Shown here: positions 8,425 to 55,337 of the stretch, in pieces | Layout of the letters: the number at the start of each line of letters is the position of its first letter | How positions within the stretch are numbered: the first letter of the stretch is position 1 | Source of the DNA: Saprospira grandis DSM 2844 | GTDB lineage: Bacteria > Bacteroidota > Bacteroidia > Chitinophagales > Saprospiraceae | NCBI RefSeq assembly: GCF_000275825.1 | Contig: NZ_JH719942.1 | Span: forward strand, 996,988-1,060,987 | DNA: 64,000 bases | Reading direction: 5' to 3' | The notes under the pieces: model-generated | What the model saw: only the letters and a program-made list of their open reading frames with translations | What the model was told of the DNA's origin: nothing | Databases searched by the model: none | Position numbers and translations under genes: made by a program

Positions 8425-9057
8425 TTATTGGCCCAATAAAATTTGCTGGGGAAAGAGTTTTTTGAGGCGGGCATCATGGGTCACAATCAGCAGGCTAGCC
8501 TTTAGGGCTTCTGATTGTTCTCGGAGGAGCTGGGCCACTTCTTGGGCATTTTTATCGTCTAGGCTAGCCGTGGGTTCATCGGCGAGGATGAGTTGGGGGC
8601 GGCGCAATAGCACTCTAGCGATAGCGATACGTTGTTGTTCGCCTTGGCTTAGTTGCTGGGGTTTGGCCTTGCGTTTATCGGCTAGATTTAGGCGATCTAG
8701 CAGTTGGATAATCGCATTTTTATCTTCTTTAATTTGGGCAAAATGCTGGGCGGCCAATAGGTTTTCCTCCACATTTAGGGAGCGGATAAGGTGAGCTTGT
8801 TGGAAGACTACGCCTACCTTTTGGCCTCTATATTCATCTAGGCTCCCCTTCATATTTTCTAGGGCCAAATCGCCTAGGCGGATACTGCCTTTTTGCAATT
8901 TCCGGAGGCCTGCGATCAGGTGGAGCAGGGTGGTTTTGCCGCAGCCAGATTGGCCTAAAAGTAGGCGTTGTTCGCCGGCGGGGCAGCTAAAATTGGGAAA
9001 ATCAATCTGTTTTCCATCGGGATATTGGTAACTAATATCTTGAACGTGTAGGTCCAT
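8425..9057 (-). CDS. ABC transporter ATP-binding protein
   Basis: Walker A GQSGCGKTTLL, ABC signature LSQGEQQRIAIARVL, Walker B LILADEPTASLD and H-loop VTHD. No permease gene adjacent. Confidence 0.9.
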   Translation of the reverse strand: MDLHVQDISYQYPDGKQIDFPNFSCPAGEQRLLLGQSGCGKTTLLHLIAGLRKLQKGSIRLGDLALENMKGSLDEYRGQKVGVVFQQAHLIRSLNVEENLLAAQHFAQIKEDKNAIIQLLDRLNLADKRKAKPQQLSQGEQQRIAIARVLLRRPQLILADEPTASLDDKNAQEVAQLLREQSEALKASLLIVTHDARLKKLFPQQILLGQ

Positions 9058-9084
9058 AGGAAAGAAGTTTCTGGTCCAAAAAAA

Positions 9085-9335
9085 TGGCGGCTTTGCCGCC
9101 TTGGCCGCAGGCCAAACGGCCTAGCGATGTGCAGGGGTGGCCGCAGGCCAGACCGAAGCGCGCAGCGCTGAAGGGCCGAGCGAACAGCGAGCCCTGGAAC
9201 GTAGCGCCGCAAGCGGAGCGCAGCGGAGGCCCCAAAAAATCAGCGAGCCCCAGAACGACAACAAGGTCTTTAGACCGCAGTTTGACGACCGAAGGGAGTA
9301 ACCGCCGCCTCATAATATGAGTGGAGGCCCCAAAA
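9085..9335. repeat. REP/MITE-like element
   Basis: Modules ggccacccctgcacatcgctaggcc (reverse complement) and gggccgagcgaacagcgagccc ... ggaggccccaaaa. Confidence 0.75.
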
Positions 9336-9394
9336 GGGCATAAAAAAGGGGAGAACAGCGAACTGTCCTCCCCTCAAAAGTACAATATTTTGGC

Positions 9395-19105: not shown

Positions 19106-20410
19106 ATGATGCACCGCCTCCTTTTGTGGATTCCTTATATATTTTGTTGTTTTTATTCTATGCTAAATAGGATTTGGGGCCTCCTGCCTTTGGCAGGCGC
19201 TATGTCCGGCAGCTCGCAAGTCTGCTCGGCCCTGCGGCCCTACGGGCCTAGGTCTGCGGCTGCGCCGCACTGCCTACCAGCGCTAGGCCCTGCCCGCCCT
19301 CGGCCCAATAGCGTCCTACAGGCGGCGATAGCCGCCGCAGGCCTAGGGATGGAAAGCGGTGGCCGCAGGCCAGACCGAGGCGGCTTTGCCGCCGAAGGGC
19401 CGAGCGAAGAGCGAGCCGCGACACAGCCCGCCGCCAAGGCCGCAGGCCTGCAGCGGAGGCCCCAACTCCTGCTGATTATTCTTGCCTTTTTGCTGCCGGT
19501 ACTGGCTTCGGCCCAAGCCAATATTCAGTTTTTGGTGGATAGTACAGAGCTGTTGATTGGGGACCAATTGACGGCTAGGATGCGGCTAGAAAGCCAAGAG
19601 GATGTGCTGGTCCGCCTGCCTAATCCTGCGGTATATTGGAGTAATGAGGCGCTAGAAGTGATTCGACTTTCGGATCAGTTGGAAGAAAGTAGCCCTGATG
19701 GGCTGAATAGTTTTGAGAAAAAGGTCACTTTTACCTTTTGGGATACGGGCCATTATCAGTTGCCTGATTTGCCTATTTTGTATCAGAAAGATGGGAAAAT
19801 AGATAGTCTTTGGTTGGAAGTGCCCATAATTCGGGTAAAGTTTCCGCCGGGTATTCGGGGCGATTCTAGTTATGTTGCGCCGATTAAGGACATAATGGAT
19901 GAGCCGCAGAATTTTATAGAAAAGCTGCTAGAATGGTTCTTCTTTTATCTGCCGATCATTGCGGTAGTTTTTCTCATTTTGTTTGCTGCTGTCTTGGGCT
20001 TTTTGGCCTATTTGCTCTATAAAAAAGCGCAGGCTAGAAGAACCTACAAAACGCCTGAAGAGCGGGCGCGTATAGCCCTAAAAAAGCTATTGGCCAAGGG
20101 CTATTTGGAGCGAGAAGAATGGGCGGAATTTCATACGGGCATCAGTTGGATTATCCGGAGTTATTTGCGGCTTCGTTTTAGAGTTCGGGCCTTAGAGGCC
20201 ACAAGCAGTCAGTTATTGGATCGGCTAAACTATGAGCAACTAGAGCAGAGTTTACTCTTAGAATTGAGAGAAGTACTAGAAACTGCGGATTTGGTTAAAT
20301 ATGCCAAGGCTTCGCCTTTGCCTGCGGCCAATGATTTTTCTTTGAAATTTATTCATAAAATGTTGGAATATGTAGAGCGGCAGGAAGCCCTCCGCAATAG
20401 TTCAAATTAA
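19106..20410 (+). CDS. Bat-operon membrane protein (signal peptide, one TM helix, coiled C-terminus); start codon unresolved
   Basis: The ORF as drawn starts at ATG 19106, but codons ~25-115 are REP-element sequence. The convincing protein begins LQRRPQLLLIILAFLLPVLASAQA at ~19451 with no in-frame ATG after the repeat. Alternative starts are ATG 19349 inside the repeat or a non-ATG codon. Position between DUF58 and batA is conserved in Bat operons. Confidence 0.55.
   Translation: MMHRLLLWIPYIFCCFYSMLNRIWGLLPLAGAMSGSSQVCSALRPYGPRSAAAPHCLPALGPARPRPNSVLQAAIAAAGLGMESGGRRPDRGGFAAEGPSEERAATQPAAKAAGLQRRPQLLLIILAFLLPVLASAQANIQFLVDSTELLIGDQLTARMRLESQEDVLVRLPNPAVYWSNEALEVIRLSDQLEESSPDGLNSFEKKVTFTFWDTGHYQLPDLPILYQKDGKIDSLWLEVPIIRVKFPPGIRGDSSYVAPIKDIMDEPQNFIEKLLEWFFFYLPIIAVVFLILFAAVLGFLAYLLYKKAQARRTYKTPEERARIALKKLLAKGYLEREEWAEFHTGISWIIRSYLRLRFRVRALEATSSQLLDRLNYEQLEQSLLLELREVLETADLVKYAKASPLPAANDFSLKFIHKMLEYVERQEALRNSSN
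19172..19465. repeat. REP/MITE-like composite element (left arm plus inverted right arm)
   Basis: ggggcctcctgcctttggcaggcgctatgtccggcagctcgcaagtctgctcggccctgcgg … gggccgagcgaagagcgagccgcgacacagcc … ggaggcccc. Sits inside the 5' end of the next ORF. Confidence 0.8.
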
Positions 20411-43260: not shown

Positions 43261-44478
43261 ATGACTAAAAACTACCAATCACTGCTACGGGCAGTAGAAC
43301 GAGAGCGAGAATTTCATAATAAGACAGCTAGGATTACAGGGGCGAACTACAATGTCTTTAGTCTATTGCAATTAGATCGAAAAGAAGATAAACTACATAG
43401 TCCCTTTATAGCGGATTTACTCCATCCTCAGGGCAGTCATCAGCAGGGGACAGTATTCTTAAAGGCCTTTATAAACATGCTCACTCAGAAATTTGAGGAT
43501 CTATCTAAACTAAGCAACTTAAAAGCAGAGCGGACTCGAGTCAATACTGAGGAATTTATAGGCAAAGTGAGAGCAAATGAAGGTGGTCGCATAGATATCT
43601 ATATTACAGATGGGCTACACACTATTGCAATCGAGAATAAAATTGATGCGGACGATCAAGAGAATCAACTATTGCGTTATGCTAATCATTTGAAAGGGAA
43701 AGAGAATACGGCTTTGCTCTACTTAAATCTAAAAGGGAGAGCTCCTTCAGAAAAGAGTACTAAGAGAAAATTAGTAGAAGGTACAGACTACTATGGGCTT
43801 TCTTATCAGAAAGATATTTTAACTTGGTTAGAGGACTGCAAGCGTATTGCAGTAGATCTACCTATTCTTAGAGAATGTTTGAAGCAGTATATTAACACTA
43901 TAAAAGAACTTTGCGGAATGAGCCTAAACGAAGACAAAAAGAAAGAAATAGAAAAGCTTATTAAGCATCATTTTGGGGCCGCATTAGATATTGCCACTCA
44001 TTTTGAAGCAGTTCGGCTTCAAATTATAAATGATTTTAGGATAGACCTTATTGACTACTTAACAGAAAACCTAGATAGTGCCATTTATCGGGTAGAGCCT
44101 TGCTTCGAGATTAACGCTAAGTACTCTAAAATTGTAATTCTGCCGCATAAAGAAAAGCACCCTTATAAACTTTACTTTAACATTGAATCCTTTAGTGCTG
44201 AGGGGTATTGGGGAGGCGACCTATATGTTGGTCTTCTCGCTAACCCTGGTCGTGGAGGCCTCAGTGACCAAGAAAAAAAAATTCTATCGGGAGAAGGCTT
44301 AAAGGGCTGGCTTCCTAAAAAGGAAAACTTAAATGTAAACACCAAAGAAGAAGCAACACTCAAACAGCTTAGTCAAGAAAAAAGTCGTAAGCAGCTAGTA
44401 GAACAACTAGGGCTACAGTGCGTACAGTTTATCCAAGAGCATGAGGACTTGCTAAAAAATTTATACAGGAAGTTTTAG
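43261..44478 (+). CDS. PD-(D/E)xK nuclease-family protein (PDDEXK_4-like N-domain plus uncharacterised C-domain)
   Basis: N-domain …EDKLHSPFIADLLHPQGSHQQGTVFLKAFINML… then GGRIDIYITDGLHTIAIENKIDADDQENQLLRYANHL (D…E-N-K catalytic-core pattern). AT-rich codon usage unlike the flanking genome. Confidence 0.55.
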   Translation: MTKNYQSLLRAVEREREFHNKTARITGANYNVFSLLQLDRKEDKLHSPFIADLLHPQGSHQQGTVFLKAFINMLTQKFEDLSKLSNLKAERTRVNTEEFIGKVRANEGGRIDIYITDGLHTIAIENKIDADDQENQLLRYANHLKGKENTALLYLNLKGRAPSEKSTKRKLVEGTDYYGLSYQKDILTWLEDCKRIAVDLPILRECLKQYINTIKELCGMSLNEDKKKEIEKLIKHHFGAALDIATHFEAVRLQIINDFRIDLIDYLTENLDSAIYRVEPCFEINAKYSKIVILPHKEKHPYKLYFNIESFSAEGYWGGDLYVGLLANPGRGGLSDQEKKILSGEGLKGWLPKKENLNVNTKEEATLKQLSQEKSRKQLVEQLGLQCVQFIQEHEDLLKNLYRKF

Positions 44479-44588
44479 GCTGCGAGGCAGAGGAAGTAAG
44501 CTAGGAAATAAAAAAGCATTATGGATTAGTACTTAAGCTCTAATTAAACGTATCTTACTTCTAATTAAAACACCTAATATAGAAACAA

Positions 44589-46046
44589 ATGATTCGCATA
44601 AATCATATACATATAGATGGGTTTAAAGACTCTGAAGACCAAAAAGATATCCAACTAGCCCGTGGTCCTATTACAGTTATTTATGGAGAGAATGGCTCTG
44701 GTAAAACCACTTTACTTCAACTGCTTTTTGCCTTTCTTAACAAAGATGAACTTACACTCAACCGTCAACAAGTACAAAAAATAGAAATTAACTACACAAT
44801 TGACGGCCTAGAGAAAGTAGCCTCTGCTAAAAACATAAGTACCTGGACAGTAGGTTTTGAATGGAATAACTGGGAAGAGCTCACACAAATCAAGAGTATC
44901 TTTCTAAGCGTTATGAGAAGTTCTAATGAAAGCAAAACAAGAGCAACACACGATAACCAACACTTTATTTTAGGTGATTTTTCGGATGAACGAGACTTAA
45001 GAGAAACGCTCAAAAAACTAGAACAACTACTTTTTGAGGCTAATAAAGAGCAATATCTTGGTGTACTTCATAGCTCTATACGGAAAATAAGATTAGCTAT
45101 AGATGATTTTTATCATAATTACAAAATGGATTTCAAGGGAGCCTCTCCTAAAAAATTACTAGAGATTCTAAATCAATTAGATTTACTGATTAGTATTGCT
45201 TCTAAAAAGGGAAGCCAAGAATTCAGTTCAAAATTGCAAGAATTAAGTAGTAAGCTTCAGCATTTTTGTACCATGAGCGGCTATTCAGATCTTGAACCAA
45301 TTAAGTTTGAGGATGATATGAGCCATATTCCTCACTATAATGTTCATCAACTATCTGCTAACGAAATCAGTAAAATTCTGACTAACTATTATAAAGCAGG
45401 GCAAGAACAAATTAGAGAAAATATCAACTTAGCCTTTTTTGACACTATTGAAAAAGCAATAGAAATAGAGACTGAAAAAAATAGCTTTGATCTTCCTAAG
45501 GATTTTAATACCCGTATTGCTAGACATGCTGACTATATTCTTCAAGCAGTACAAATTCACACATCAAGTCTAGCTGATAAAGTTCGTATGTTCTTAAAGG
45601 AAGGGGAAAATGCTCCTATCCCAGATAGTAAAATATTTAGAGCTCTTCTTCTTGAAGTGCTAAAAAGTGCTGAGCAAAAAAATCTAAAGCTTGAGGCTAT
45701 AGAAAAACTTCAAGAAGTTTTCAATTCCCATTTGTACAAAGGCAAAAAACTAATTATAACAAAAGAACAAGCCTATATCTCTATAAAAGAAAATAGAGGG
45801 CATACACTCCAAGAGTTATCAAGTGGTGAAAAGCAACTACTAAATATATTGACTTTCATTCTTTTATTGAGTAGAGAACGAAAACTCATCCTAATTGATG
45901 AGCCCGAAATCTCTCTTAACATAAAATGGCAGCGCAACTTCATTCCACTCTTGCAAGAGCTTAATCAAGATGCACAAATCATTGTTGCTTCTCATAGCCC
46001 TTCTATTGCGTACAAAAAAACAGAAACACTAGTAGAGTTGCTCTAA
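44589..46046 (+). CDS. ABC/SMC-like (AAA_15/21-type) ATPase, AriA-like
   Basis: Walker A IYGENGSGKTTLLQLLFAF near the N-terminus. Long helical insert. Signature LSSGEKQLLNILTFILL. Walker B KLILIDEPEISLN. H-loop IVASHSPS. Confidence 0.6.
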   Translation: MIRINHIHIDGFKDSEDQKDIQLARGPITVIYGENGSGKTTLLQLLFAFLNKDELTLNRQQVQKIEINYTIDGLEKVASAKNISTWTVGFEWNNWEELTQIKSIFLSVMRSSNESKTRATHDNQHFILGDFSDERDLRETLKKLEQLLFEANKEQYLGVLHSSIRKIRLAIDDFYHNYKMDFKGASPKKLLEILNQLDLLISIASKKGSQEFSSKLQELSSKLQHFCTMSGYSDLEPIKFEDDMSHIPHYNVHQLSANEISKILTNYYKAGQEQIRENINLAFFDTIEKAIEIETEKNSFDLPKDFNTRIARHADYILQAVQIHTSSLADKVRMFLKEGENAPIPDSKIFRALLLEVLKSAEQKNLKLEAIEKLQEVFNSHLYKGKKLIITKEQAYISIKENRGHTLQELSSGEKQLLNILTFILLLSRERKLILIDEPEISLNIKWQRNFIPLLQELNQDAQIIVASHSPSIAYKKTETLVELL

Positions 46047-46058
46047 ACCCTTAGTTTG

Positions 46059-47003
46059 ATGATCTCAAATGATATTCACGAATGTTTAGCTGCTGCAATT
46101 ATGGCTGGCAGTCCCACCATCCTCATAGAAGGAAAAGACGATGAAGAAGTCTATACCAATATTAGCAATGAACTAGGGCTAACATTAGAGTTTCTCCCCA
46201 TAGATTTTGTAGACACAACTGGCTATGGGGTTTTGGGTAATTGTGATCAGCTTGTAGCTAGCCTAAGGGACTTAGACAACAGCTGTAAAGACCCTAAATG
46301 GATCAAATTTATTGGTGGAGTTATAGACCTAGATAGTCGCAGCTTTGCCAATCAAATTAGTAGGCCGCCTAGGAATCTATACATATTAAAGATGTATTCT
46401 ATTGAGTCCTACTTTGTTAATCAGGAGAGCTTTATTGCCGTATTCAATAGTCTCAACTCTGCACCTATTTCCAATGCGCTTAAAGACAGTTACTACAATG
46501 ATTTTAATAGCTTCTTTGCCCCTGTAGAAGAGGAGCTTTTTTGGGTGGCTACAGAGGCGCTACAAAATGTTTGTGGGGCTAATCCTAGTCCTGAAATTAC
46601 ATACGGTGTTGACTTTAGTTTTAAAGGCTATATGCAAGCGCCTTCAGTCAACCCTAAGCGGCAGATAGTTGATCGGATTCAAGCTAAAAAGGAAGCTTTA
46701 AGAAGTTGGTTAAACAATGCTTTTAGTACTGCCGTTATACAAAAACAGCTCATCATTAAGGGGAAATGGTGGCTATCCGTTTTTTTAGATATTATTGTTG
46801 AATATGCTAAAAAGCTAGAAGCAGACTGCAGTTTCGCCCCTTCTGGTCCTTGTCGCTATTGTGCTATAGAAGATAAAGGTAACTGTCAATTCAAACTCAA
46901 AGTTAAAAGTCCAACGCCAGCGGCACTTAAGGCAATGGCCTATCAGACCTCCGTATCTGATCAAGATCCTGGGCTCTGCAATTTTCTGGAGTTGTTTAAT
47001 TAA
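46059..47003 (+). CDS. Small TOPRIM-like protein (DUF4435/AriB-like) coupled to the upstream ATPase
   Basis: PTILIEGKDDEEVY (TOPRIM Glu in an hEG motif) and, ~65 aa later, IGGVIDLDS (DxD). 12-bp gap from the upstream ATPase. The track ORF begins at TTG 46056; ATG 46059 preferred. Confidence 0.5.
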   Translation: MISNDIHECLAAAIMAGSPTILIEGKDDEEVYTNISNELGLTLEFLPIDFVDTTGYGVLGNCDQLVASLRDLDNSCKDPKWIKFIGGVIDLDSRSFANQISRPPRNLYILKMYSIESYFVNQESFIAVFNSLNSAPISNALKDSYYNDFNSFFAPVEEELFWVATEALQNVCGANPSPEITYGVDFSFKGYMQAPSVNPKRQIVDRIQAKKEALRSWLNNAFSTAVIQKQLIIKGKWWLSVFLDIIVEYAKKLEADCSFAPSGPCRYCAIEDKGNCQFKLKVKSPTPAALKAMAYQTSVSDQDPGLCNFLELFN

Positions 47004-47049
47004 AAAGCAAAGCCGCCAGCTTATTTATATAAGCTAACGACTTTATACC

Positions 47050-47562
47050 CTACTCCAAATTCCACCAAAGCTTCCCCCCTACTCCCCCATCCGCTCCAAT
47101 TTCTAGCTCCCAAATACTACCCAAAGGCGTATGGCAACCATAGGGACAAGTATAGGGGTAGTCGAGTAGCTCTTTCTTGGGGTCCAAATACTCCAAAATC
47201 ATATTGATGGGCCCACAATGGCTAAAGATGACCGCGGGCCGAGCCCACAACTGCTCCTCCTCCCCCCGATACCAATCCTGCACTCTTTGTTCTAATGACT
47301 CATGCGGCTCTATTTCTTTCTCTCTTTCTCTTAATGCCTGCACTATCTTCGGCTGCAAAGCTGGCACAAGCTGGGCATAGGGCGCATAGGTTTGCCCTAC
47401 CCGCAAATAATCGCTACAATATACGGCCTGAATATCTTTCTTTGCCAAATATTGGGCTATGGCTAGGGCTTGCTTTTGTCCTTTTCTGCCCAAGGCTGGC
47501 CCCGGAAAACCCCGATATTCTTTGGGAGCAGGCTGGGCGTGACGCACTAAATAAAGCTTCAT
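47050..47562 (-). CDS. Histidine phosphatase superfamily protein (phosphoglycerate-mutase-like / SixA-type)
   Basis: MKLYLVRHAQPAP… with the RHA/RHG catalytic His motif at the N-terminus. 170 aa. Last gene of a five-gene minus-strand operon. Confidence 0.65.
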   Translation of the reverse strand: MKLYLVRHAQPAPKEYRGFPGPALGRKGQKQALAIAQYLAKKDIQAVYCSDYLRVGQTYAPYAQLVPALQPKIVQALREREKEIEPHESLEQRVQDWYRGEEEQLWARPAVIFSHCGPINMILEYLDPKKELLDYPYTCPYGCHTPLGSIWELEIGADGGVGGKLWWNLE

Positions 47563-48254
47563 ATTTTATGTTGGCAGTCTCCTTTTTCGTTAATAATTTC
47601 ATGCTCCCCCGCTTGGTTCTGCACCAATGCAAAGCCATTGTAAAAGGGCTCTAGCTGCAAAAACCGACGATTATATACGGGCCGCCCCGCCAAATCGATA
47701 TGCAACCAACCCGCCTCATCTTTGGCCCGAGCAAATCCTTTGTGAAAAACATCTAACTCTAGATAGCGATAAGGATGTAAGGCCCTGCCCTGAGAATCAA
47801 TATGCAAACAATAACCATCGGCCTGACGAACACAGGCGTAGCCATCTCTAAAGTCGCCCGCATAGCAATAACGCGCCCCATAAAGCGGATCTCCCTGCAG
47901 ATCAATATGGAAGTATTCGCCGCCTTTTCGGACCGTGCAAATGTCTTGCTGATAGTTGCCACACCAGTCATAACGCTCCCCATAAATGGCATGTCCTTTT
48001 GTGTCTATATGAAACTGCCCTTGCTCAGAACAGACCGCCGCCCGATCACAATAATAACCAAAGGTCCGCAAATACCGCTGAGGGTATATAGCCACTCCAG
48101 TTGTATCAATATGATAACTACCACTATGATCTTCTACAGGCGCCAAACCCGGCGCATGAAACTTTAATACCGACTTAAAAGGGCCAAAAATAGCCCGCTC
48201 TTCCAAGCAAAATCCATTGCCCTCCGCATTGACTTTTATGTTTTTCCAATTCAT
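47559..48254 (-). CDS. WG-repeat-containing protein
   Basis: Five ~38-aa repeats of the form W/F/Y-x-HID-x-x-G-x-x-(V/I/L)Y-x-x-RY…F-x-x-G-(F/Y)A-x-V (e.g. WLHIDLAGRPVYNRRFLQLEPFYNGFALVQNQAG). 4-bp overlaps with both neighbours. Confidence 0.5.
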   Translation of the reverse strand: MNWKNIKVNAEGNGFCLEERAIFGPFKSVLKFHAPGLAPVEDHSGSYHIDTTGVAIYPQRYLRTFGYYCDRAAVCSEQGQFHIDTKGHAIYGERYDWCGNYQQDICTVRKGGEYFHIDLQGDPLYGARYCYAGDFRDGYACVRQADGYCLHIDSQGRALHPYRYLELDVFHKGFARAKDEAGWLHIDLAGRPVYNRRFLQLEPFYNGFALVQNQAGEHEIINEKGDCQHKI

Positions 48255-49222
48255 CTTTTCTCAAATATCAATATAGATTGTAAATCATTTAAGGGGCGCT
48301 TTTCTAAATAAATAAAGCCTGTTTGCTCCGCCAATTTCCGATAGGCCGCTAAGGTCCGCTCTTGGCTCTTACAAATGGCCAACATGTTCAAACTAAGCAG
48401 CTCGGCCCCATCGGCTAGCTGCTCTTTTAGGATTTCTAAGATATACAAGCGCCCTCCTTTTGGCAAGGCGGCATAAACGTTTTCCAATATTTTCAAGGCC
48501 GCTTCATCTGGCCAATCATGTAGTACTCTAGCCAGAAAAATATGCTCGGCGACTTGGGGAATAGGCGCAAAAAAATCTACAGGAATAGGCCGAAAAGGCA
48601 AGTCTCCCGCTGGCAATAAAGCCAATACCTTGGGCTTGTCTAATAAATAAAATGTAGGCCCAGGATAAACTCTCGCCAAGTCCTTGAGCAAAGCCCCCAA
48701 ACCGCCGCCAAGGTCCATTACAGCTTTGGCTTCCGACAAATCTAATTGCTCAGCCAAATTTGCATAATCATCCCGCGCATACTCATTCATGGCCAAATGA
48801 TACACCCGATTGCTCTCGGGATGCTCATCCAAATAATCAAAAAAAGGCTGCCCGTAAATATGGTCAAAGGCAGGTTTGTCTTCTAAAACACTATAGGCCA
48901 AATGCTGCCAAGCCCGCAAATGCTCCTCCCCCCAAAGCAAACAAGCATACTTCAAACTTTTAGGATGTTCCTCCGCCAGCTGCGCCCCTTTTTTAGCCAA
49001 AATATACTGCCCATTTTCTTCTGTTAAGGCCTCCAATTGCTCCAATGCCGCCAATAATAACTGCAAACTTGCCCGCTTGGCCCCTAGCTTTTCGGCCAAA
49101 TTGGCCAAACTAAGCGGCCCCTCCCAAAGCAGATCAAATACCCCCAACTGACAGGCGGTCCGCAAGGGCAAATAATGCCAATAACTGCTAAAACTATTCT
49201 TCAACTCCTGACTAATACTCAT
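48251..49222 (-). CDS. Class I SAM-dependent O-methyltransferase (dimerisation domain plus MTase domain)
   Basis: VMDLGGGLGALLKDLARVYPGPTFYLLDKPKV (motif I) and overall plant-type OMT architecture. The track ORF runs to 49294 through a REP copy; start placed at ATG 49220-49222 (MSISQELKN…). Confidence 0.75.
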   Translation of the reverse strand: MSISQELKNSFSSYWHYLPLRTACQLGVFDLLWEGPLSLANLAEKLGAKRASLQLLLAALEQLEALTEENGQYILAKKGAQLAEEHPKSLKYACLLWGEEHLRAWQHLAYSVLEDKPAFDHIYGQPFFDYLDEHPESNRVYHLAMNEYARDDYANLAEQLDLSEAKAVMDLGGGLGALLKDLARVYPGPTFYLLDKPKVLALLPAGDLPFRPIPVDFFAPIPQVAEHIFLARVLHDWPDEAALKILENVYAALPKGGRLYILEILKEQLADGAELLSLNMLAICKSQERTLAAYRKLAEQTGFIYLEKRPLNDLQSILIFEKR

Positions 49223-49246
49223 CTTTTTCTGTTCTACATGATTTGA

Positions 49247-49372
49247 TTTTGGGGCCTCCTGCCTACGGCAGGCGCTACGCTTTGGGGCTCGCAAGTCTGC
49301 TCGGCCCTTCGGCGGCTTTGCCGCCTCGGTCTGGCCTAACGGCCACCCCGCCGCATCGCTAGGCCAAAAAAG
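49247..49372. repeat. REP/MITE-like element inserted inside the operon between the radical SAM and OMT genes
   Basis: ttttggggcctcctgcctacggcaggcgctacgctttggggctcgcaagtctgctcggcccttcggcgg … ggccaccccgccgcatcgctaggcc. Confidence 0.8.
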
Positions 49373-49403
49373 GCCTGCGGCTGAGCTAGAGAGCTAAAAC
49401 CGC

Positions 49404-50429
49404 CTACTTCCGCATCGTACAGCCTTGGCAAAGGGGCTTTTCCTTATAATTTTCAACCAACTCTAAGTAGGCTTTGCTTTGCAGGACCTCCACAAGGCTG
49501 CGGTCCTGAATATTACCAAAGTCGCCTAAGGCTTGCCGCTGCTCATCAGGGGCGCAGCAAGGCGATATTTTCCCCGTGGCCGAGACCCAAAGTTCTTTAT
49601 TTAGAAACGGACAGTCGTAGTCTTCCGGGACCGCCTCTGCTGCGCCTGCAGTTAGCGGGACAATATTTTCTAGTAAAACAGCTTTGCCATTGGGCAGTAA
49701 ATATTGGTCTCTAGCCGCATAGGCCTCTTCTACATATTGGTTCCATTGGGCCATGCTTTGGGCATCCTTACGGAAAGATAAGTCCTTGATTTCATCAAAA
49801 TGATCCCACAACTGATGCCCTTTTACCCGATCTACGCCAAGACTAGCCGCTAGCTTAATAATATCGGCCAGTTCCTGCATATTGTTTTGCATAAAGGTCA
49901 ATTGGAAACTTACTCGGCAATAATAGCCCGTTTCTGCAAAATGCTGGTCTCGTACAGCCACAAAGCGACGGACATGATCTACACACTGCTCAAAGTTAAT
50001 CCCTGGCATGACTTCCTCGGCTGTTTTGGCGGTGGCCGCATTCCAAGAGATTTTAATGTCTGTCGTTTGTGGTACAATCAGTTTGGCCCAAACTTCTACG
50101 GGCTTTTTAGGAAAGGTCCCATTGGTGGTGAGGTTAATTTTGATTCCATACTGCTCACTCAAATCAAAGATTTGCTCAAAGCCTTTATACAGCAAGGGTT
50201 CCCCCATCGTAGAGGGGATAATCTCTTTGACGCCCAAGGCTTGGGCCTGCTCAAAAATCTGGACCACCCACTCAAAAGGCATACGGCGACGCTTGACGCC
50301 CGTGTTTTTATAGAGGTCCGCGATAAATGTACTATAAGGACTATGCTCCTCGCACATAATACAATGCAAGTTGCAATCTTCAGGGTTGGTGTCTATGGTA
50401 ATTCGCCAAAAGTCTTTAGGCTTGGACAT
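49404..50429 (-). CDS. Radical SAM enzyme with C-terminal SPASM/twitch-like auxiliary cluster domain
   Basis: CNLHCIMC (Cx3Cx2C) near the N-terminus. Cys-rich C-terminus CPFLN…GKISPCCAP…CQGCTMRK. Confidence 0.85.
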   Translation of the reverse strand: MSKPKDFWRITIDTNPEDCNLHCIMCEEHSPYSTFIADLYKNTGVKRRRMPFEWVVQIFEQAQALGVKEIIPSTMGEPLLYKGFEQIFDLSEQYGIKINLTTNGTFPKKPVEVWAKLIVPQTTDIKISWNAATAKTAEEVMPGINFEQCVDHVRRFVAVRDQHFAETGYYCRVSFQLTFMQNNMQELADIIKLAASLGVDRVKGHQLWDHFDEIKDLSFRKDAQSMAQWNQYVEEAYAARDQYLLPNGKAVLLENIVPLTAGAAEAVPEDYDCPFLNKELWVSATGKISPCCAPDEQRQALGDFGNIQDRSLVEVLQSKAYLELVENYKEKPLCQGCTMRK

Positions 50430-51705
50430 GCAAAATAGCTTTATACTGTTCTAAAATGGTTGCTGTATGTGTTTTAATGTCAGGGACCTCTCCAGCGGCA
50501 TCATAGAGATAGCCTCTTTGGCCCAATTGCTTCATTTCTTCAGGATGTTGGATGGCCCAGGCCATTTGCTCTTGTAGCGATGGACCATCTCGGTGCTTGA
50601 AGAGCAGGCCATTGACCCCATGCGCTACATATTCCGCCATGCCCCCATAATCTGCCGTGATGACCGGCAAACGGGCCGCCTGCGCCTCATGAATCACCAA
50701 AGGAGAGTTTTCGCCCCAAATAGAAGGGACCACAATGGCATCTACCTGAGCAAAAACCTCTTGGACCAAATCTTCATTGGCATAGCCCCCACAAAATGAA
50801 ATCCGCTGACTTTGCGCTGCGCTCATAGCGCTTAAGGCTTTTTGGCTTTGGCTGTCTTTCCAGCCCCAGATTTTTAACTCTGCCCCTTGCGCTAAGCCCT
50901 TAAAGGCCTCTATGAGTAAGTTGACCCCCTTGGCGGGAATATGCGTGCCGATATACCCAAAGCGAAAAGGTCCAGCTTTACGAGCTGTTTTGGGCGGACT
51001 TAAATAATGCGTCGGAAAGCCATAATCTAGATAACTTACTTTTTCCGCAGGCAAGTTAAAATCATGAATAAAGCGATTCATCAGATAGCGAGAGGGCGCA
51101 ATAAAATGATCGACTAGCCCAATAATTTCTCTTGTTTTCTGCATCCGTCGGCCTATCCATCGGCTCCAATAGGCCAGATCTTCGGCTTCTTCTTCTGGAT
51201 GGCCAGAAAAGAGCATTTTGTAGCAAGACTGTGCACATTTTTGGTCCTCTTGGCCCGTACAGAGCTGATAGCAGTTTTGGCCATCAAAGTTGCGCTGTAG
51301 AAACTGACCTCGGGGACACATCAGCCAGAAATCGTGCAAGGTAAAGAGAATGGGCACCCCCGCTTTTTTAAGCGCTTGGACCAAGCCCAAAGACAGATGA
51401 TTAAGATGGCCAATATGAGCCACATCTGGACGGTCTTGGGCCAAAATAGCCGCCAGCTTTTGGTCCACCTGCGGCTGCCAATAGCCATCTTTGTCTCTGG
51501 GCATATTGACCAAATGAAACTCTAGGCCCTGCTCATCTTTAAAAGAACGCAGCTCAAAATCTGGCCGATAAGGTTCCTCCTCTCGGCTGAAAATGGTGAG
51601 CCGATGCCCCTGCCGATGCAGTTCTTGGCAGAGGCTCTGGCTATAGACTTCGGAGCCTGCACTGTAGCCCGGCGGATAGCCATGGATAATTTTTAAAATG
51701 TGCAT
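50416..51705 (-). CDS. GT-B fold glycosyltransferase (family 4-like)
   Basis: C-terminal GT4 donor-binding region …VVPSIWGENSPLVIHEAQAARLPVITADYGGMAEYVAHGVNGLLF… (E-x7-E-like). First gene of the operon, 14-bp overlap with the rSAM gene. Confidence 0.8.
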   Translation of the reverse strand: MHILKIIHGYPPGYSAGSEVYSQSLCQELHRQGHRLTIFSREEEPYRPDFELRSFKDEQGLEFHLVNMPRDKDGYWQPQVDQKLAAILAQDRPDVAHIGHLNHLSLGLVQALKKAGVPILFTLHDFWLMCPRGQFLQRNFDGQNCYQLCTGQEDQKCAQSCYKMLFSGHPEEEAEDLAYWSRWIGRRMQKTREIIGLVDHFIAPSRYLMNRFIHDFNLPAEKVSYLDYGFPTHYLSPPKTARKAGPFRFGYIGTHIPAKGVNLLIEAFKGLAQGAELKIWGWKDSQSQKALSAMSAAQSQRISFCGGYANEDLVQEVFAQVDAIVVPSIWGENSPLVIHEAQAARLPVITADYGGMAEYVAHGVNGLLFKHRDGPSLQEQMAWAIQHPEEMKQLGQRGYLYDAAGEVPDIKTHTATILEQYKAILHVQA

Positions 51706-51743
51706 TTTTTCAATTTATGGTTTAGGGAAGGCTGTTGGGAACT

Positions 51744-51784
51744 AGCTCAAAAGGAGGGTTTTGTCTTTGTGCTCCTTTTGAGCT
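51744..51784. promoter_or_regulatory. Perfect 13-bp inverted repeat agctcaaaaggag-N15-ctccttttgagct in the divergent control region
   Basis: Seen directly. Lies 40-80 bp upstream of the GT4 start codon on the minus strand. Could be an operator or a 5'-UTR hairpin. Confidence 0.4.
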
Positions 51785-51943
51785 CCACTTATTGCAGATA
51801 ATCAAAAGGATGTGCCAAAAAAGAAAAACAACCCAAACAGCTAACAATCAATAATTTACAAAAACAAGCTAATTTAAAGCTGCTGTAAAATTTTGGAATC
51901 TATGTATTTTTTTACAGTTTCAGGATAACTTTAGGGCAATACT

Positions 51944-52103
51944 TAGGCGGCGAAGCCGCCGCAAAGGAGCGAAGCGACTGGCCTAGCGATGTGCAGCAGT
52001 GCGGCGCAGCCGCAGACCCAGCAAAAAACTTGTTTTTTTGTGCAGGGCCGAGCGAACAGCGAGCTGCGAAACGTAGCGCCTGCCGAAGGCAGGAGGCCCC
52101 CAA
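51944..52103. repeat. REP/MITE-like element in the divergent promoter region
   Basis: ggcggcgaagccgccgcaaaggagcgaagcgactggcctagcgatgtgcag … gggccgagcgaacagcgagctgcgaaacgtagcgcctgccgaaggcaggaggccccc. Confidence 0.8.
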
Positions 52104-52122
52104 AAAAACCCTTACTTAATTT

Positions 52123-53955
52123 ATGACCATGGCAAAAGAAAACATTTACATCAGTTGGCATTATACGACCCATGGCACTGCATTTTTGCAGCATCAGTTG
52201 GCGGCATTTTGGCGGGGCGAGCTGCAATTATCGGAAAAGCCCTTGTATAAGGAGGGGCTTTGTCAGTTGGAATTGAGCGAGGCTTTTTCGGCAAGTCGGC
52301 AGCCTGGTTTTTTGTTTGACAGGGTCTATTATTTATGTGCCGAGCAGGCTGTTTTGGACCGTTTATCTCTTCGGCGTTTAAGCTATCGAAAGAACATGTA
52401 TGAGGTAGACAAAGCGGTTGCGGAGACGCAGATGCAGGAGGTTTGGAGAGAGGTGATTGCGCAGGATCTTCCGTCTTGGGTAGATGAGATGGCTTATGTA
52501 AAGGCCCATTATTCCAGTCGTTTGGGCGACTTTGAGGGGCAGATTTGGCGAGATATGCAGCATTACCCTATTGACAGCCAGCTAGCATGGTTTAGGCGAA
52601 AATCGCCTGCTGCGCCTTATTATCGTGCTCGTTTTGAGGCCGTTCATTTTAGTCAGGAAGAGCTGCCGAACTTGCGAGATGAGCAGAGCATTTTGGCTGT
52701 TTTGCAAGGCTTTTTCAAAAATATTTTGGCCCATCATGGAGCCGAGGCCAACTACATCATCAATGTCAGTTTGGGCAGTAATGAAACGCAGGTGGCTTGG
52801 TTTGTTCTGGCCGAGGCGGGGCTTTTGCCCCCCAACTGTCGATTTATCAAGGTCTATGATGTTAAGACCAAAGGCAAAGACCCTCGTTTCAAGAATTTCC
52901 AAATTCAGGAGATTCCCAGCCGCCTAATTTCTAGTTTATCGGCCAACTTATATGAGCATGACAACCTACAATCGCCCTTGCGGCGTTTGGCCGACCTTAA
53001 GATGAAGACCTATATAGAGCAAGGTTTTGCCATATTGATTTTGGGCGAAAGAGGAACGGGAAAGTCCAGAATGATTTCGAGATTGGAGCGAGAAAACCGC
53101 AAGGTATTAGCCATTAATTGTGCTTCTTTTGATGATGACAACAAGGCTGAATCGGAGTTTTTTGGACATGCCAAGGGGGCCTATACGGGGGCAGAGCAAG
53201 CCAAAAAGGGCTTATTTGAAGAAGCTCGGGACGGGATTCTCTTCTTTGATGAAGTGCATCATTTGAGTAAGCGGGTACAGGGCAAACTCATGAAAGCCCT
53301 ACAAACCGATGAGAACAACAATTATCGGTTTCGGCCTATGGGAGACAGTCAGGAACAACAAAGTCAGTTTACTGCTGTTTTTGCTAGCAACAAAAGTATT
53401 GAGGAGCTGCGAGAGCTTTTATTGGCCGACTTCTTTGACCGTATCTCTCAGCTCCTCATTGAGCTGCCCCCACTGCGAGAAAGTCGAGATGAAATTGAAA
53501 AAGACTGGGAAACTGTTTGGACGCAACTGCGCTTTGCGCCTAGCTACCCCTGTCCCAAATCTCCAGAGCTCTTCCGATGGCTCAAAAAGCAGCCCTTATG
53601 GGGCAACTTTAGAGATTTGCAAAAGATAGCCATCTACTATAAGGCCTTTTTAGATTTGCCCAAAGAGGCCCAACAACTAGAGGGGGTAGAGCAGCCCCTA
53701 GACTTTGCAAAAAAGGAATTTAAGGCCTATCATGGGCATTTCCCTAAGCAAACTAAGTTGCCCCGAGCCTTTCAAGAACTCTTTGATCTAGAGCTCATTG
53801 CCTCAGAGACAAAAGAAAAGACCTATAAAATTCTGGAGAAGCGCTATAAAAAGGCCTTAATTGCTTGGGTGGAAGAAAACTTTCCCGCTCAACAGGTTTG
53901 GGAGATTTTGGACATGAGCGAAAGTAGCTACTATAAGATGAAAAAAGAGGGCTAA
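52123..53955 (+). CDS. rtcR: RtcR-family sigma-54-dependent transcriptional regulator (CARF-like N-domain, AAA+ sigma54-interaction domain, Fis-type HTH)
   Basis: N-domain NETQVAWFVLAEAGLLPPNCRFIKVY cf. E. coli RtcR THVAQICWFLLAEARYLPARLIQ. AAA+ ILILGERGTGKSRM…VLAINCASF…FFGHAKGAYTGA (GAFTGA-type) …GILFFDEVHHL. C-terminal HTH VWEILDMSESSYYKMKKEG. No REC domain. Confidence 0.8.
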   Translation: MTMAKENIYISWHYTTHGTAFLQHQLAAFWRGELQLSEKPLYKEGLCQLELSEAFSASRQPGFLFDRVYYLCAEQAVLDRLSLRRLSYRKNMYEVDKAVAETQMQEVWREVIAQDLPSWVDEMAYVKAHYSSRLGDFEGQIWRDMQHYPIDSQLAWFRRKSPAAPYYRARFEAVHFSQEELPNLRDEQSILAVLQGFFKNILAHHGAEANYIINVSLGSNETQVAWFVLAEAGLLPPNCRFIKVYDVKTKGKDPRFKNFQIQEIPSRLISSLSANLYEHDNLQSPLRRLADLKMKTYIEQGFAILILGERGTGKSRMISRLERENRKVLAINCASFDDDNKAESEFFGHAKGAYTGAEQAKKGLFEEARDGILFFDEVHHLSKRVQGKLMKALQTDENNNYRFRPMGDSQEQQSQFTAVFASNKSIEELRELLLADFFDRISQLLIELPPLRESRDEIEKDWETVWTQLRFAPSYPCPKSPELFRWLKKQPLWGNFRDLQKIAIYYKAFLDLPKEAQQLEGVEQPLDFAKKEFKAYHGHFPKQTKLPRAFQELFDLELIASETKEKTYKILEKRYKKALIAWVEENFPAQQVWEILDMSESSYYKMKKEG

Positions 53956-54140
53956 ATAGGATGATTTAGGCCTCCCTTCTCAAGAGCGCTCATGCCTCTA
54001 GCCACTTCTGGATAATCGGCAGCCTGCTGTAAGGCCGCTGTATATTCGGGCCGAAAAAGGCGCAGGGAGTAGGCCGCTCCATTTAGTTCAAATTCTATCT
54101 CTTTCATTTTTTATCTTTGAGTTCACTCAGAATAATTGAC

Positions 54141-55337
54141 ATGATTAAGATAGATAAAATAAAACAACTGGCCCAAGAACAGCTGGAGCAATGGATCAGC
54201 ATTCGCCGACATCTCCACCAATATCCCGAACTCTCTTTTGAAGAATGGGAAACCGCTAATTATATCGCCTCTTGCCTAGATCGCTGGGGCATTAGCTACC
54301 AAAGAGGAATGGTCAAAACAGGGATTTTTGCCCAAATTGAAGGCAAAAATCCCGATGCGGCCTGCATTACGCTCCGTGCCGATATAGACGCGCTCCCTAT
54401 CCAAGAGCAAACAGGCCTGCCCTTTAGCTCTAAAAATGAGGGCCGTATGCATGCCTGCGGCCATGATGTACATACCACTTCCCTACTCGCTACCGCCTTT
54501 ATTCTGCATGAACTTAGGGAGGAGTTTGAGGGCCGCATTCAACTGATCTTCCAACCTGGCGAAGAACTGCTGCCCGGTGGCGCTAGCCAAGTCTTGGCCG
54601 AGGGTTGGCTGGACCAAAGCCTAGATTTTCCGATTTTGGGCCAGCATGTAGAACCTAGCCTGCCTGCGGGGCAGGTTGGCTTTCATCCCGGCCCCTTTAT
54701 GGCCTCCGCCGATGAGCTTTATCTCTCTGTTTATGGTAAGGGCGGACATGCCGCCCGCCCCCAAGATTGTAATGATGTAATCCTGATTGCCTCGCATCTA
54801 GTAGTAGCCCTACAGCAGTTAATTAGCCGATTTAGAGACCCGCTGCAGCCTTCGGTCCTTAGTTTTGGCAAAATGAATACGGCTGGTGGCGCCACCAATG
54901 TATTGCCCGAACGCATTGATCTTGAAGGCACATTCAGAGCCTTCAATGAAGAATGGCGAGCCGAAGCCCATCAAAAAATGCAGCAGCTCTGTCAGCAAAT
55001 GGCCCAAAGTATGGGTGGCCGTGCCGAGCTAGAAATTAGAAAGGGCTATCCCTACCTACACAATGAAGAAAGCCTAACGCATAGCCTGATGCAGGCCGCC
55101 CGTGACTATGTCGGCAAGGATAATTTGGTCCTCCTCCCCCAACGCATGGGGGCTGAAGATTTTGGCTTTTATGCCCAACAAATGCCCGCCTGCTTCTATC
55201 GCTTGGGCACGGGCATTGGTCCAGGTTTGCACCACCCCAAGTTTTCTCCCGATGAGAAAACTAGCCTACCTTTAGGCGCTGGACTCATGGCCTATCTGGC
55301 CCTTTTTCAGCTAAATCAACAGATCAAAAAGGCCTAG
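54141..55337 (+). CDS. M20D family amidohydrolase (N-acyl-L-amino acid amidohydrolase / hippurate hydrolase type)
   Basis: MHACGHDVHT metal-binding motif, GKGGHAARPQD, overall ~400-aa M20D layout. The track ORF begins at TTG 54117; ATG 54141 preferred. Confidence 0.9.
   Translation: MIKIDKIKQLAQEQLEQWISIRRHLHQYPELSFEEWETANYIASCLDRWGISYQRGMVKTGIFAQIEGKNPDAACITLRADIDALPIQEQTGLPFSSKNEGRMHACGHDVHTTSLLATAFILHELREEFEGRIQLIFQPGEELLPGGASQVLAEGWLDQSLDFPILGQHVEPSLPAGQVGFHPGPFMASADELYLSVYGKGGHAARPQDCNDVILIASHLVVALQQLISRFRDPLQPSVLSFGKMNTAGGATNVLPERIDLEGTFRAFNEEWRAEAHQKMQQLCQQMAQSMGGRAELEIRKGYPYLHNEESLTHSLMQAARDYVGKDNLVLLPQRMGAEDFGFYAQQMPACFYRLGTGIGPGLHHPKFSPDEKTSLPLGAGLMAYLALFQLNQQIKKA

Follow-up and report, generated by a model that had tools for sequence, protein, structure and literature searches.

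A 64-kb stretch of the Saprospira grandis genome (here called the window, with positions counted from its first nucleotide) carries on its forward strand, at 52123 to 53955, an open reading frame (ORF) for a 610-residue transcriptional activator, here referred to as REG, that combines a CARF-fold sensor, a sigma54-type AAA+ domain, and a putative helix-turn-helix (HTH) domain. Divergent from it lies an operon of five genes encoding a GT4 family glycosyltransferase, a radical SAM/SPASM protein, an O-methyltransferase (OMT), a WG-repeat protein, and a histidine phosphatase. A preliminary description of the window had read REG as a CARF-sigma54 activator of the type of Escherichia coli RtcR, unaccompanied by the RNA repair genes rtcBA, and had taken the divergent operon as its target. 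Here we analyze the regulator, the operon, the intergenic region between them, and related loci in other genomes, which together indicate that REG and the enzyme cassette are inherited as one module.

The regulator and its domains

The ORF and its identity as a CARF-sigma54 activator are borne out by Pfam and PADLOC profiles, BLASTP, and a structure model. The NCBI database contains a protein identical to the REG product (100%), named "sigma 54-interacting transcriptional regulator" and assigned to Saprospira grandis, that begins at the second methionine (probably position 52129) and is 608 residues long. Homologs at 40 to 54% identity are numerous, almost all are about 600 residues in length, and most are from Bacteroidota.

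The sensor domain spans residues ~6 to 279 (52138 to 52959, forward strand). The N-terminal domain is predicted to adopt a CARF fold, with the expected strand order and the hairpin formed by strands 5 and 6; the AlphaFold2 (AF2) model of full-length REG has a pLDDT (predicted local distance difference test) score of 91.9. The loops that follow strand 1 and strand 4 make up the ligand pocket of CARF domains, and the corresponding segments of REG, WHYTTHG (residues 12 to 18) and NVSLGSNETQ (residues 214 to 223), are invariant or nearly so across 84 family sequences. According to the secondary structure of the model, the fold is interrupted by an alpha-helical insert of ~95 residues (residues ~75 to 167; 52345 to 52623, forward strand) that has no counterpart in E. 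coli RtcR. A phmmer search with the N-terminal domain alone against 1.84 billion representative proteins returned 64 matches, nearly all of them proteins of ~600 residues or fragments thereof, so that a CARF domain with this insert is essentially restricted to the REG architecture.

The sigma54-interaction AAA+ domain occupies residues 293 to 446 (52999 to 53460, forward strand; Pfam Sigma54_activat, 2.3e-32), and inspection of its motifs identified a Walker A sequence GERGTGKS (53044 to 53067), the sigma54-contact loop GAYTGA (53176 to 53193), and a Walker B sequence FFDEVH (~53239 to 53259). Among the 84 family members the loop reads exactly GAFTGA in 54 and has an aromatic residue in every case (phenylalanine in 80 and tyrosine in 4). 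Foldseek superposes the modeled AAA+ domain on NtrC1, NtrC4, DmpR, FleQ, and PspF, with TM scores of ~0.8 to NtrC1, FleQ, and PspF. At the C terminus the AF2 model places, with confidence, three helices (residues 564 to 586, 592 to 595, and 600 to 608) that make up a putative HTH DNA-binding domain (residues 564 to 608; 53812 to 53946, forward strand). The Pfam profile scan found neither HTH_8 nor any other Pfam HTH family in REG, while the PADLOC CARF_AAA_HTH profile matched up to position 460 of its 468 positions, and a Fis-type HTH is plausible from the model. The domain assignments of the preliminary description thus stood for the AAA+ core, with both its GAYTGA and FFDEVH motifs and its Sigma54_activat match, and remain plausible for the Fis-type HTH, for which the expected HTH_8 match did not appear.

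The divergent operon

Pfam and NCBIfam profiles agree with the operon composition that had been proposed. All five genes are on the reverse strand. The first encodes the GT4 family glycosyltransferase (50416 to 51705; Pfam Glycos_transf_1, 2.9e-26, and Glyco_transf_4, 1.4e-22), whose closest relatives of solved structure are MshA (7qsg) and sucrose-phosphate synthase (6kih), and it overlaps the next gene by 14 nucleotides. That gene (49404 to 50429) encodes a radical SAM enzyme with a C-terminal SPASM domain (Pfam Radical_SAM, 1.7e-11, and SPASM, 3.9e-10), in which the cluster motif CNLHCIMC begins at residue 19; its best NCBIfam match, to TIGR04317, reaches 75 bits, far under the cut-off. A small-molecule OMT follows (48251 to 49294; Pfam Methyltransf_2, 1.3e-36, plus Dimerisation). 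Its true start is likely the ATG at 49222, giving a protein of 323 residues, because the upstream TTG sits in a repeat copy and the homologs are ~320 residues long. The nearest solved structures are natural-product O-methyltransferases, led by 6c5b (1.7e-40) and followed by CalO6, CalO1, and MmcR. The last two genes encode a 231-residue WG-repeat protein with five HID..G..iY..RY repeats (47559 to 48254; Pfam WG_beta_rep, 9.3e-14) and a 170-residue histidine phosphatase of branch 1 (47050 to 47562; Pfam His_Phos_1, 8.3e-17), and a strong, terminator-like hairpin of 17 pairs with a T-run closes the operon (47008 to 47045, reverse strand). Neither the Pfam and NCBIfam profiles nor the protein clusters of related loci revealed membrane, export, protease, peptide-recognition, or lipid-carrier components in the cassette.

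Relationship to RtcR and other CARF-sigma54 regulators

BLASTP aligns REG with E. coli RtcR (taken from NC_000913) at 27% identity (E value of 3e-26) over residues 180 to 461, corresponding to RtcR residues 78 to 371, and this alignment spans the segment pair VAWFVLAEAGLLP and ICWFLLAEARYLP on which the preliminary description had drawn; residues 1 to 179 have nothing that BLASTP can align to E. coli RtcR. The proposed alignment across the N-terminal domain therefore holds in its second part and has no counterpart in the first. Profile comparisons point the same way. RtcR is the best-scoring named NCBIfam model for REG (9.6e-40), yet the score against this equivalog (NF038308) is 136.9 bits versus a cut-off of 650, with coverage of model positions 76 to 414 of 530. 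The Pfam profile for the RtcR N-terminal domain (PF06956) is matched only below threshold (E value of 0.008; 16.1 bits versus a gathering score of 23.1) and only at residues 174 to 237. The best profile of all is PADLOC RtcR_PspF1--CARF_AAA_HTH (PDLC01994; 9.4e-83, residues 199 to 602); here the match begins at profile position 80, so that the insert and the first half of the CARF domain fall outside it, and typical members of the group, an assignment that rests on the PADLOC profile names, score 1e-131. Because REG reaches 137 of the 650 bits that define the RtcR equivalog and cannot be aligned to RtcR over its first 180 residues, it does not count as an RtcR ortholog by the curated criteria, and the designation "RtcR-type", if taken as orthology, does not hold; REG is better labeled an RtcR_PspF1-like CARF-sigma54 activator. 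When the E. coli RtcA and RtcB proteins were used as tblastn queries, neither gene was found in the window, nor was either found within 10 kb of REG relatives at any of 80 related loci (0/80; one tally puts the loci searched at 84).

In architecture REG and the RtcR of E. coli and Salmonella remain alike: both join a CARF domain to an NtrC-type AAA+ domain and an HTH (putative in REG), both have a divergent target, and both share the strand-4 loop and the helix GS/T-x-x-Q-x-x-WF-L-AEA. The CARF domain of RtcR binds 5' tRNA halves that end in a 2',3'-cyclic phosphate, the protein oligomerizes, and deletion of the CARF domain makes it constitutive (PMC7790460); by presumed likeness, the CARF domain of REG may also be inhibitory until its ligand is bound (PMC7790460). 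The differences are that REG is not accompanied by rtcBA, carries the ~95-residue helical insert in its CARF domain, and has a biosynthetic-type cassette as its target. REG also shares its AAA+ core, GAFTGA-type loop, and Walker motifs with enhancer-binding proteins of the PspF and NtrC1 type, in which the sensor is a receiver, GAF, or V4R domain or is missing, while that of REG is a CARF domain.

That a CARF-sigma54 regulator can serve an output other than Rtc is, in general terms, already known. RtcR-like CARF-NtrC-HTH proteins lacking a link to Rtc and tied to restriction-modification genes were reported in 2014 (PMC4012209), and in 2024 RtcR homologs were described at the head of CoCoNuT defense superoperons, where a small BrnT-like gene often comes first (PMC11090510). 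Like these CoCoNuT RtcR homologs and the RtcR_PspF1-type proteins (PDLC01994; PMC4012209), which are CARF-sigma54 regulators attached to non-Rtc, conflict-related operons, REG is joined to a target other than rtcBA. The RtcR_PspF1-type regulators are nonetheless different: typical members among the loci studied here are ~477 residues long, lack the insert, and lie on the same strand at the 3' end of an MkoA-like helicase/phospholipase D (PLD) nuclease operon, whereas members of the REG family are ~600 residues long, are divergent from their target, and accompany small-molecule-type enzymes rather than nucleases.

Conservation of the module across related loci

We collected 80 genome loci with 10-kb flanks (designated by L numbers below), located homologs of the window proteins by tblastn, and clustered all ORFs; for synteny, the denominator was the 36 loci that have a full-length REG and at least 6 kb of upstream sequence. 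GT4 and radical SAM genes are divergent from REG in 31 of these 36, and the WG gene is also present in 29. In three independent metagenome or genome contexts, precomputed Pfam annotations place REG divergent from a small ORF followed by GT4, radical SAM/SPASM, OMT, and WG genes. Synteny of this kind indicates that REG and the cassette are one inherited module, found mainly in Bacteroidota, that is old and self-contained, and it does not fit the preliminary suggestion that a signal had been "rewired", with its implication of a recent re-use of RtcR.

Within the cassette some functions are fused, exchanged, or capped in alternative ways. GT4 and radical SAM/SPASM are fused in one protein in about half of the related loci; as seen in the translation, the S. 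grandis GT4 protein has a Cys-rich segment (CPRGQ...NCYQLC...KCAQSC, residues ~128 to 165) between its two Rossmann halves, which might hold a metal or cluster and bear on this frequent fusion. Of the 35 complete cassettes (drawn from L005 to L084), 20 have an OMT and 11 a NodU/TobZ-type carbamoyltransferase, never both, and 29 have a phosphatase, which belongs to one of three unrelated types: a His_Phos_1 protein of 170 residues, another of 196 residues, or a PolB-NTase/Y_phosphatase3 fusion. The preliminary description had floated the idea that the terminal histidine phosphatase might act on phosphorylated or cyclic-phosphate substrates, and we found no support for a special role on cyclic phosphates; a slot filled interchangeably by three phosphatase types fits an ordinary phosphomonoesterase step after GT4. 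The WG protein, present in 36 of 41 cassettes and sometimes fused to the OMT (L003, L006, and L052), belongs to a tight family of 615 clusters with a length of ~233 residues and 50 to 58% identity, and no other protein marks the cassette as specifically.

In many loci the gene next to the promoter encodes a variable small protein (for example, L001 9590 to 9745, L003 9648 to 9803, L082 9668 to 9820, and L029 9557 to 9859). At least five unrelated families (c11, c14, c3, c20, c22, and c75) occupy this slot, while the enzymes keep 50 to 77% identity. One type is an Asn/Lys-rich peptide of 46 to 51 residues, NPNKG..GTN..YD..QGNRGKQLNPNQ, directly upstream of GT4 in at least eight loci; another is a ~50-residue peptide with a Seed Maturation Protein (SMP) domain (Pfam SMP, 2.9e-07) and a weak Ifi-6-16 match; and a third, c3, has ~99 residues with an invariant His and an invariant Arg, occurs in 19 to 21 loci, and has no detected homolog. 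The sequence CAATGGGA, which emerged from an intergenic k-mer search as a candidate DNA motif, was rejected upon finding that it is coding sequence of the small c3 gene. PDB sequence searches with the radical SAM protein, the WG protein, and the c3 profile yielded nothing useful, and the window has no homologs of the small first-gene peptides of its relatives. The ~100-residue first gene in the cassettes of relatives recalls the BrnT-like genes that lie upstream of CoCoNuTs associated with RtcR (PMC11090510).

Not every cassette is joined to a CARF regulator. CARF-less AAA+ regulators of ~310 to 330 residues accompany it in Flavobacterium ardleyense and Kordia antarctica (L085 2553 to 3545 and L086 3731 to 4663, both on the reverse strand, are coordinates of such regulators). 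CARF-less regulators of ~315 residues are also found in L066, L069, and L082, where the TGGCAY promoter described below is kept, and in architecture these proteins adjoining the same cassette are PspF-like. One contig has an FHA-sigma54 activator near the cassette (L087 11969 to 13396, forward strand). The sensor module is thus exchangeable, while dependence on sigma54 seems to be kept.

Promoter and intergenic region

Alignment of the short spacers between the regulator ATG and the first operon gene revealed a sigma54-type -24/-12 element with the consensus TTGGCAYR-N4-TTGMA, in which the GC of the -12 region is often GA; the promoter is visible only after the spacers have been aligned in this way. 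Of 38 non-redundant loci, 30 carry TGGCAY on the strand of the operon and 1 carries it on the opposite strand, against a mean of 1.3 (maximum, 5) in shuffled sequences, and the element usually lies 25 to 65 nucleotides before the first start codon and ~100 nucleotides from the regulator ATG. A strict scan for TGGCAC-N5-TTGCW, with obligatory GG and GC, was set aside as a way of finding the promoter; it gave canonical matches in only a few loci and nothing above chance in the window. In S. grandis the promoter of the divergent operon is TTGGCACATCCTTTTGAT (51800 to 51817, reverse strand), of the form TTGGCAC-N5-TTTGA, and is located 96 nucleotides upstream of the GT4 gene. The preliminary description had looked for a -24/-12 element upstream of GT4 and seen only a weak TGGCAC (51812 to 51817) with an off-spacing TTGAT, which proves to be the family sigma54 promoter, read from 51817 to 51800 on the reverse strand. 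With the cassette conserved in 31 of 36 loci and this element in 30 of 38, the divergent operon, as had been proposed, appears from comparative genomics to be the real and evolutionarily conserved target of REG. No rpoN gene lies in the window, and the conserved promoter is indirect evidence that the genome has one.

Other elements of the intergenic region are less certain. An 8-bp inverted repeat, CTGTAAAA-N19-TTTTACAG (51883 to 51917), situated ~70 to 100 bp upstream of the -24 element, is a weak candidate for the enhancer (upstream activating sequence). Many other loci have AAAGGTAAT...ATAGGTAAT repeats beside the regulator start and a TGATTATCA-like palindrome ~30 nucleotides before the -24 element, and these are candidate enhancer and bending-protein sites. 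Downstream of the promoter, the predicted 5' leader of the operon contains a hairpin with a perfect 13-bp stem (51744 to 51784, reverse strand; RNA fold of -22.2 kcal/mol, z score of -3.67), the 3' arm of which repeats TCCTTTTGA of the -12 region. This hairpin takes the place held by the small first genes in other loci; S. grandis has no small first gene. Rfam gave no match in 46900 to 54200.

The intergenic region between REG and the operon is 417 bp, which is unusually long because a GC-rich dispersed repeat of ~190 bp (51926 to 52120) has been inserted there, separating the enhancer/promoter region from the REG start. The repeat is not part of the mechanism. It forms hairpins, resembles REP (repetitive extragenic palindromic) or MITE (miniature inverted-repeat transposable element) sequences, is intergenic, and has at least 15 partial copies in the 64 kb, including those at 33267 to 33328, 19173 to 19235, and 9169 to 9239; a second copy lies inside the operon, between the radical SAM and OMT genes (49247 to 49308).

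Links to conflict and defense systems

In seven related loci (L011, L024, L030 [8700 to 9560, reverse strand], L035, L036, L051, and L060), a gene for a bona fide prokaryotic viperin (pVip; PADLOC, 1.3e-82) is tightly packed between the small first gene and GT4, so that the operon promoter also serves a known antiviral effector. An additional radical SAM protein in L047 proved not to be a viperin. In L073, the unrelated helicase/PLD operon that goes with the shorter RtcR_PspF1 regulators contains both a viperin and an SMP-domain mini-protein, an arrangement suggesting that the viperin sub-module is mobile. The operon radical SAM protein of S. grandis is itself a radical SAM enzyme like pVip but of the SPASM type, with marginal similarity to pVip (PADLOC, 1e-08 and 33 bits, versus 1.3e-82 for the true pVips of related loci; BLASTP E value of 0.07).

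The shorter regulators are CARF-AAA-HTH proteins of ~477 residues (L067 to L083; for example, L068 4117 to 10939), which are the best PADLOC RtcR_PspF1 matches (1e-131). Their genes follow, at the 3' end, a conserved trio composed of an MkoA-like helicase (~870 residues), a protein of ~370 residues, and a PLD/DrmC-like nuclease (~510 residues). The trio and its ~477-residue regulator were found in Proteobacteria, Myxococcota, Fibrobacter, and Verrucomicrobia, and apparently constitute a separate regulated defense operon.

Adjoining the module in S. grandis is a defense-like islet with 35% GC (43261 to 47003). It contains a PD-(D/E)XK protein that corresponds to PADLOC PDC-S26 (6.9e-117), an AriA-like AAA_15/21 ATPase (44589 to 46046), and an AriB-like DUF4435 protein (46056 to 47003; a weak match, 1.8e-08). 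The AriA/AriB-like pair is PARIS-like and, given the low GC content, probably horizontally acquired.

Discussion

In this study, we characterized a CARF-sigma54 regulator of S. grandis and the enzyme cassette divergent from it. We judge it somewhat better than even that REG senses a signal through its CARF domain, switches on the cassette via sigma54, and thereby produces a soluble small-molecule glycoside with a stress or antiviral output. REG would act as a bacterial enhancer-binding protein (bEBP) whose N-terminal CARF domain, with its family-specific helical insert, senses a ligand. By analogy to RtcR, the unliganded CARF domain would probably hold the AAA+ domain inactive, and ligand binding would allow oligomerization. 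The AAA+ domain would then remodel sigma54-RNA polymerase at the TTGGCAC-N5-TTTGA promoter, turning on the five genes for GT4, radical SAM/SPASM, OMT, WG, and histidine phosphatase.

For the chemistry of the pathway we propose that GT4 would glycosylate a phosphorylated acceptor, the phosphatase would take off the phosphate, the radical SAM/SPASM enzyme would carry out a radical transformation, and one hydroxyl would be capped by O-methylation or, in other genomes, by O-carbamoylation. MshA and sucrose-phosphate synthase glycosylate phosphorylated acceptors, and a dedicated phosphatase step then follows; since the GT4 protein is kin to these two enzymes, each with a phosphatase next, a phosphatase would be needed but interchangeable. 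The replacement of the OMT by an O-carbamoyltransferase suggests that a single hydroxyl is capped. The products look soluble, and exporters, proteases, peptide-recognition domains, and lipid-carrier enzymes are all missing from the cassette, so that the most economical reading is a small-molecule glycoside; we infer that the cassette product is most likely a soluble one of this kind. Since viperin shares the operon in some relatives, a stress or antiviral response is the probable output.

A more specific form of this idea is an undescribed, inducible chemical defense in which the CARF domain senses a nucleotide or RNA released by infection or damage and sigma54 turns on the synthesis of a capped, glycosylated antiviral compound, with viperin as an optional addition; we consider this form less likely than not. 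Several observations weigh against the broader reading. REG occurs apart from the cassette in five loci, where its neighbors are unrelated genes such as those for an extracytoplasmic function sigma factor, an S49 peptidase, and an outer membrane protein. Contexts sampled from the side of the WG protein pair this cassette with sigma54 activators that lack CARF or are of another kind, and the CARF signal is thus not indispensable to it. The sigma54-contact loop of REG reads GAYTGA, the tyrosine variant shared by just 4 of the 84 family members; an exchange of phenylalanine for tyrosine in the GAFTGA loop is tolerated in other bEBPs. The -12 element of S. grandis is displaced by one base from the family register, as in a few other loci. 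For the radical SAM, WG, and GT4 proteins we found no characterized close homolog, which makes the identity of the cassette product a guess. pVip is found in only ~18% of cassettes and not in the S. grandis window. Flanks of 38 loci (110 proteins, examined with Pfam and PADLOC) are heterogeneous, with many housekeeping genes and only a few helicase-, BREX-, or DISARM-like matches, and we therefore claim no general enrichment in defense islands. Finally, no REG relatives were found in IMG/VR viral contigs.

The same genes could instead make up a stress-protectant operon, in which a compatible-solute-like glycoside and small hydrophilin-type proteins answer a physiological stress sensed by the CARF domain. 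Sucrose, mycothiol precursors, and glucosylglycerate are classically made by a GT4 enzyme with a dedicated phosphatase acting after it, and MshA and sucrose-phosphate synthase are the solved structures nearest to the GT4 protein; the first genes of related operons are often tiny and encode highly hydrophilic proteins, one family of which has the SMP domain (2.9e-07), and the flanks of the cassette are frequently housekeeping genes. Compatible-solute pathways, though, need no radical SAM/SPASM enzyme, aromatic-type OMT, or carbamoyltransferase, seven loci carry viperin as cargo, the SMP peptide moves with pVip into the unrelated helicase/PLD operon of L073, and the window has none of these small genes, so that we regard a stress-protectant role as unlikely. 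Those small ORFs also invite the view that they are precursors of a ribosomally synthesized and post-translationally modified peptide (RiPP), with the radical SAM/SPASM enzyme modifying the peptide, GT4 adding a sugar, and the OMT a methyl group. Peptide maturation is the typical role of SPASM radical SAM enzymes, conserved ORFs of 46 to 51 residues lie directly upstream of GT4 in at least eight loci, and there are weak NCBIfam matches to CFB glycosyltransferase/radical SAM peptide systems. A peptide product is improbable, however, given that the CFB scores are far under their cut-offs (36 versus 400 and 21 versus 300), that at least five unrelated families share the small-gene slot next to enzymes that are 50 to 77% identical, and that S. 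grandis has no such ORF in the window; moreover, the cluster motif of the radical SAM protein starts at residue 19, leaving no room for a RiPP recognition element (RRE) domain, no protease or exporter is present, and the OMT resembles small-molecule enzymes.

Two further explanations concern the target of the enzymes and of the regulator. An inducible system that glycosylates and methylates a macromolecule or the cell surface, for example a glycan, nucleic acid, or protein, so as to block phage adsorption or replication would suit the frequent involvement of GT4 enzymes in polysaccharide synthesis (NCBIfam exopolysaccharide [EPS] and PEP-CTERM glycosyltransferase matches), a weak Pfam "GT4-conflict" match of 29.9 bits, and the NAD-epimerase that accompanies some cassettes. 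Yet the cassette contains no flippase, polymerase, lipid-carrier transferase, signal peptide, or membrane protein, its phosphatase and capping enzyme suit a soluble pathway better, and general GT4 models score far above GT4-conflict, which leaves modification of a macromolecule or of the cell surface quite improbable. That REG is a genuine RtcR serving an rtcBA operon at another site in the S. grandis genome, the neighboring operon being a coincidence, would agree with RtcR being the best named NCBIfam model and with an rtcBA search in S. grandis that covered the 64-kb window; against this stand the score of 137 bits so far under the equivalog cut-off, cassette synteny in 31 of 36 loci across several orders together with a conserved sigma54 promoter, and 80 loci with no RtcA or RtcB within 10 kb, and we hold this explanation to be very improbable indeed.

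We found no description in the literature of the Bacteroidota subfamily with an inserted CARF domain, of its biosynthetic-type cassette, or of its viperin cargo, although this is not proof of absence. Known outputs of CARF domains are nucleases, deaminases, proteases, or, in the case of RtcR, RNA repair. The module characterized here appears to be a CARF-sigma54 switch locked to a conserved, natural-product-type enzyme cassette across Bacteroidota, and its main interest is that the output would be enzymatic small-molecule chemistry and not a nuclease. Even a modest reading of these results corrects an annotation trap, in that the name RtcR should be withheld from proteins of the REG family. 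Handles for biochemical work are offered by the methyl and carbamoyl caps, which exclude each other, by the GT4-radical SAM fusions, and by the optional viperin. Bacteroidota are abundant in gut, marine, and soil communities, and their stress and antiviral responses have been little studied. If the cassette does make an antiviral or protective metabolite, the regulator and its promoter, both with clear sequence signatures, would be a tractable pair for the discovery of ligand and product, and transcriptionally induced small-molecule synthesis would join the outputs of CARF signaling; if the chemical-defense reading is right, this would be the first CARF-controlled output that is biosynthetic instead of nucleolytic.

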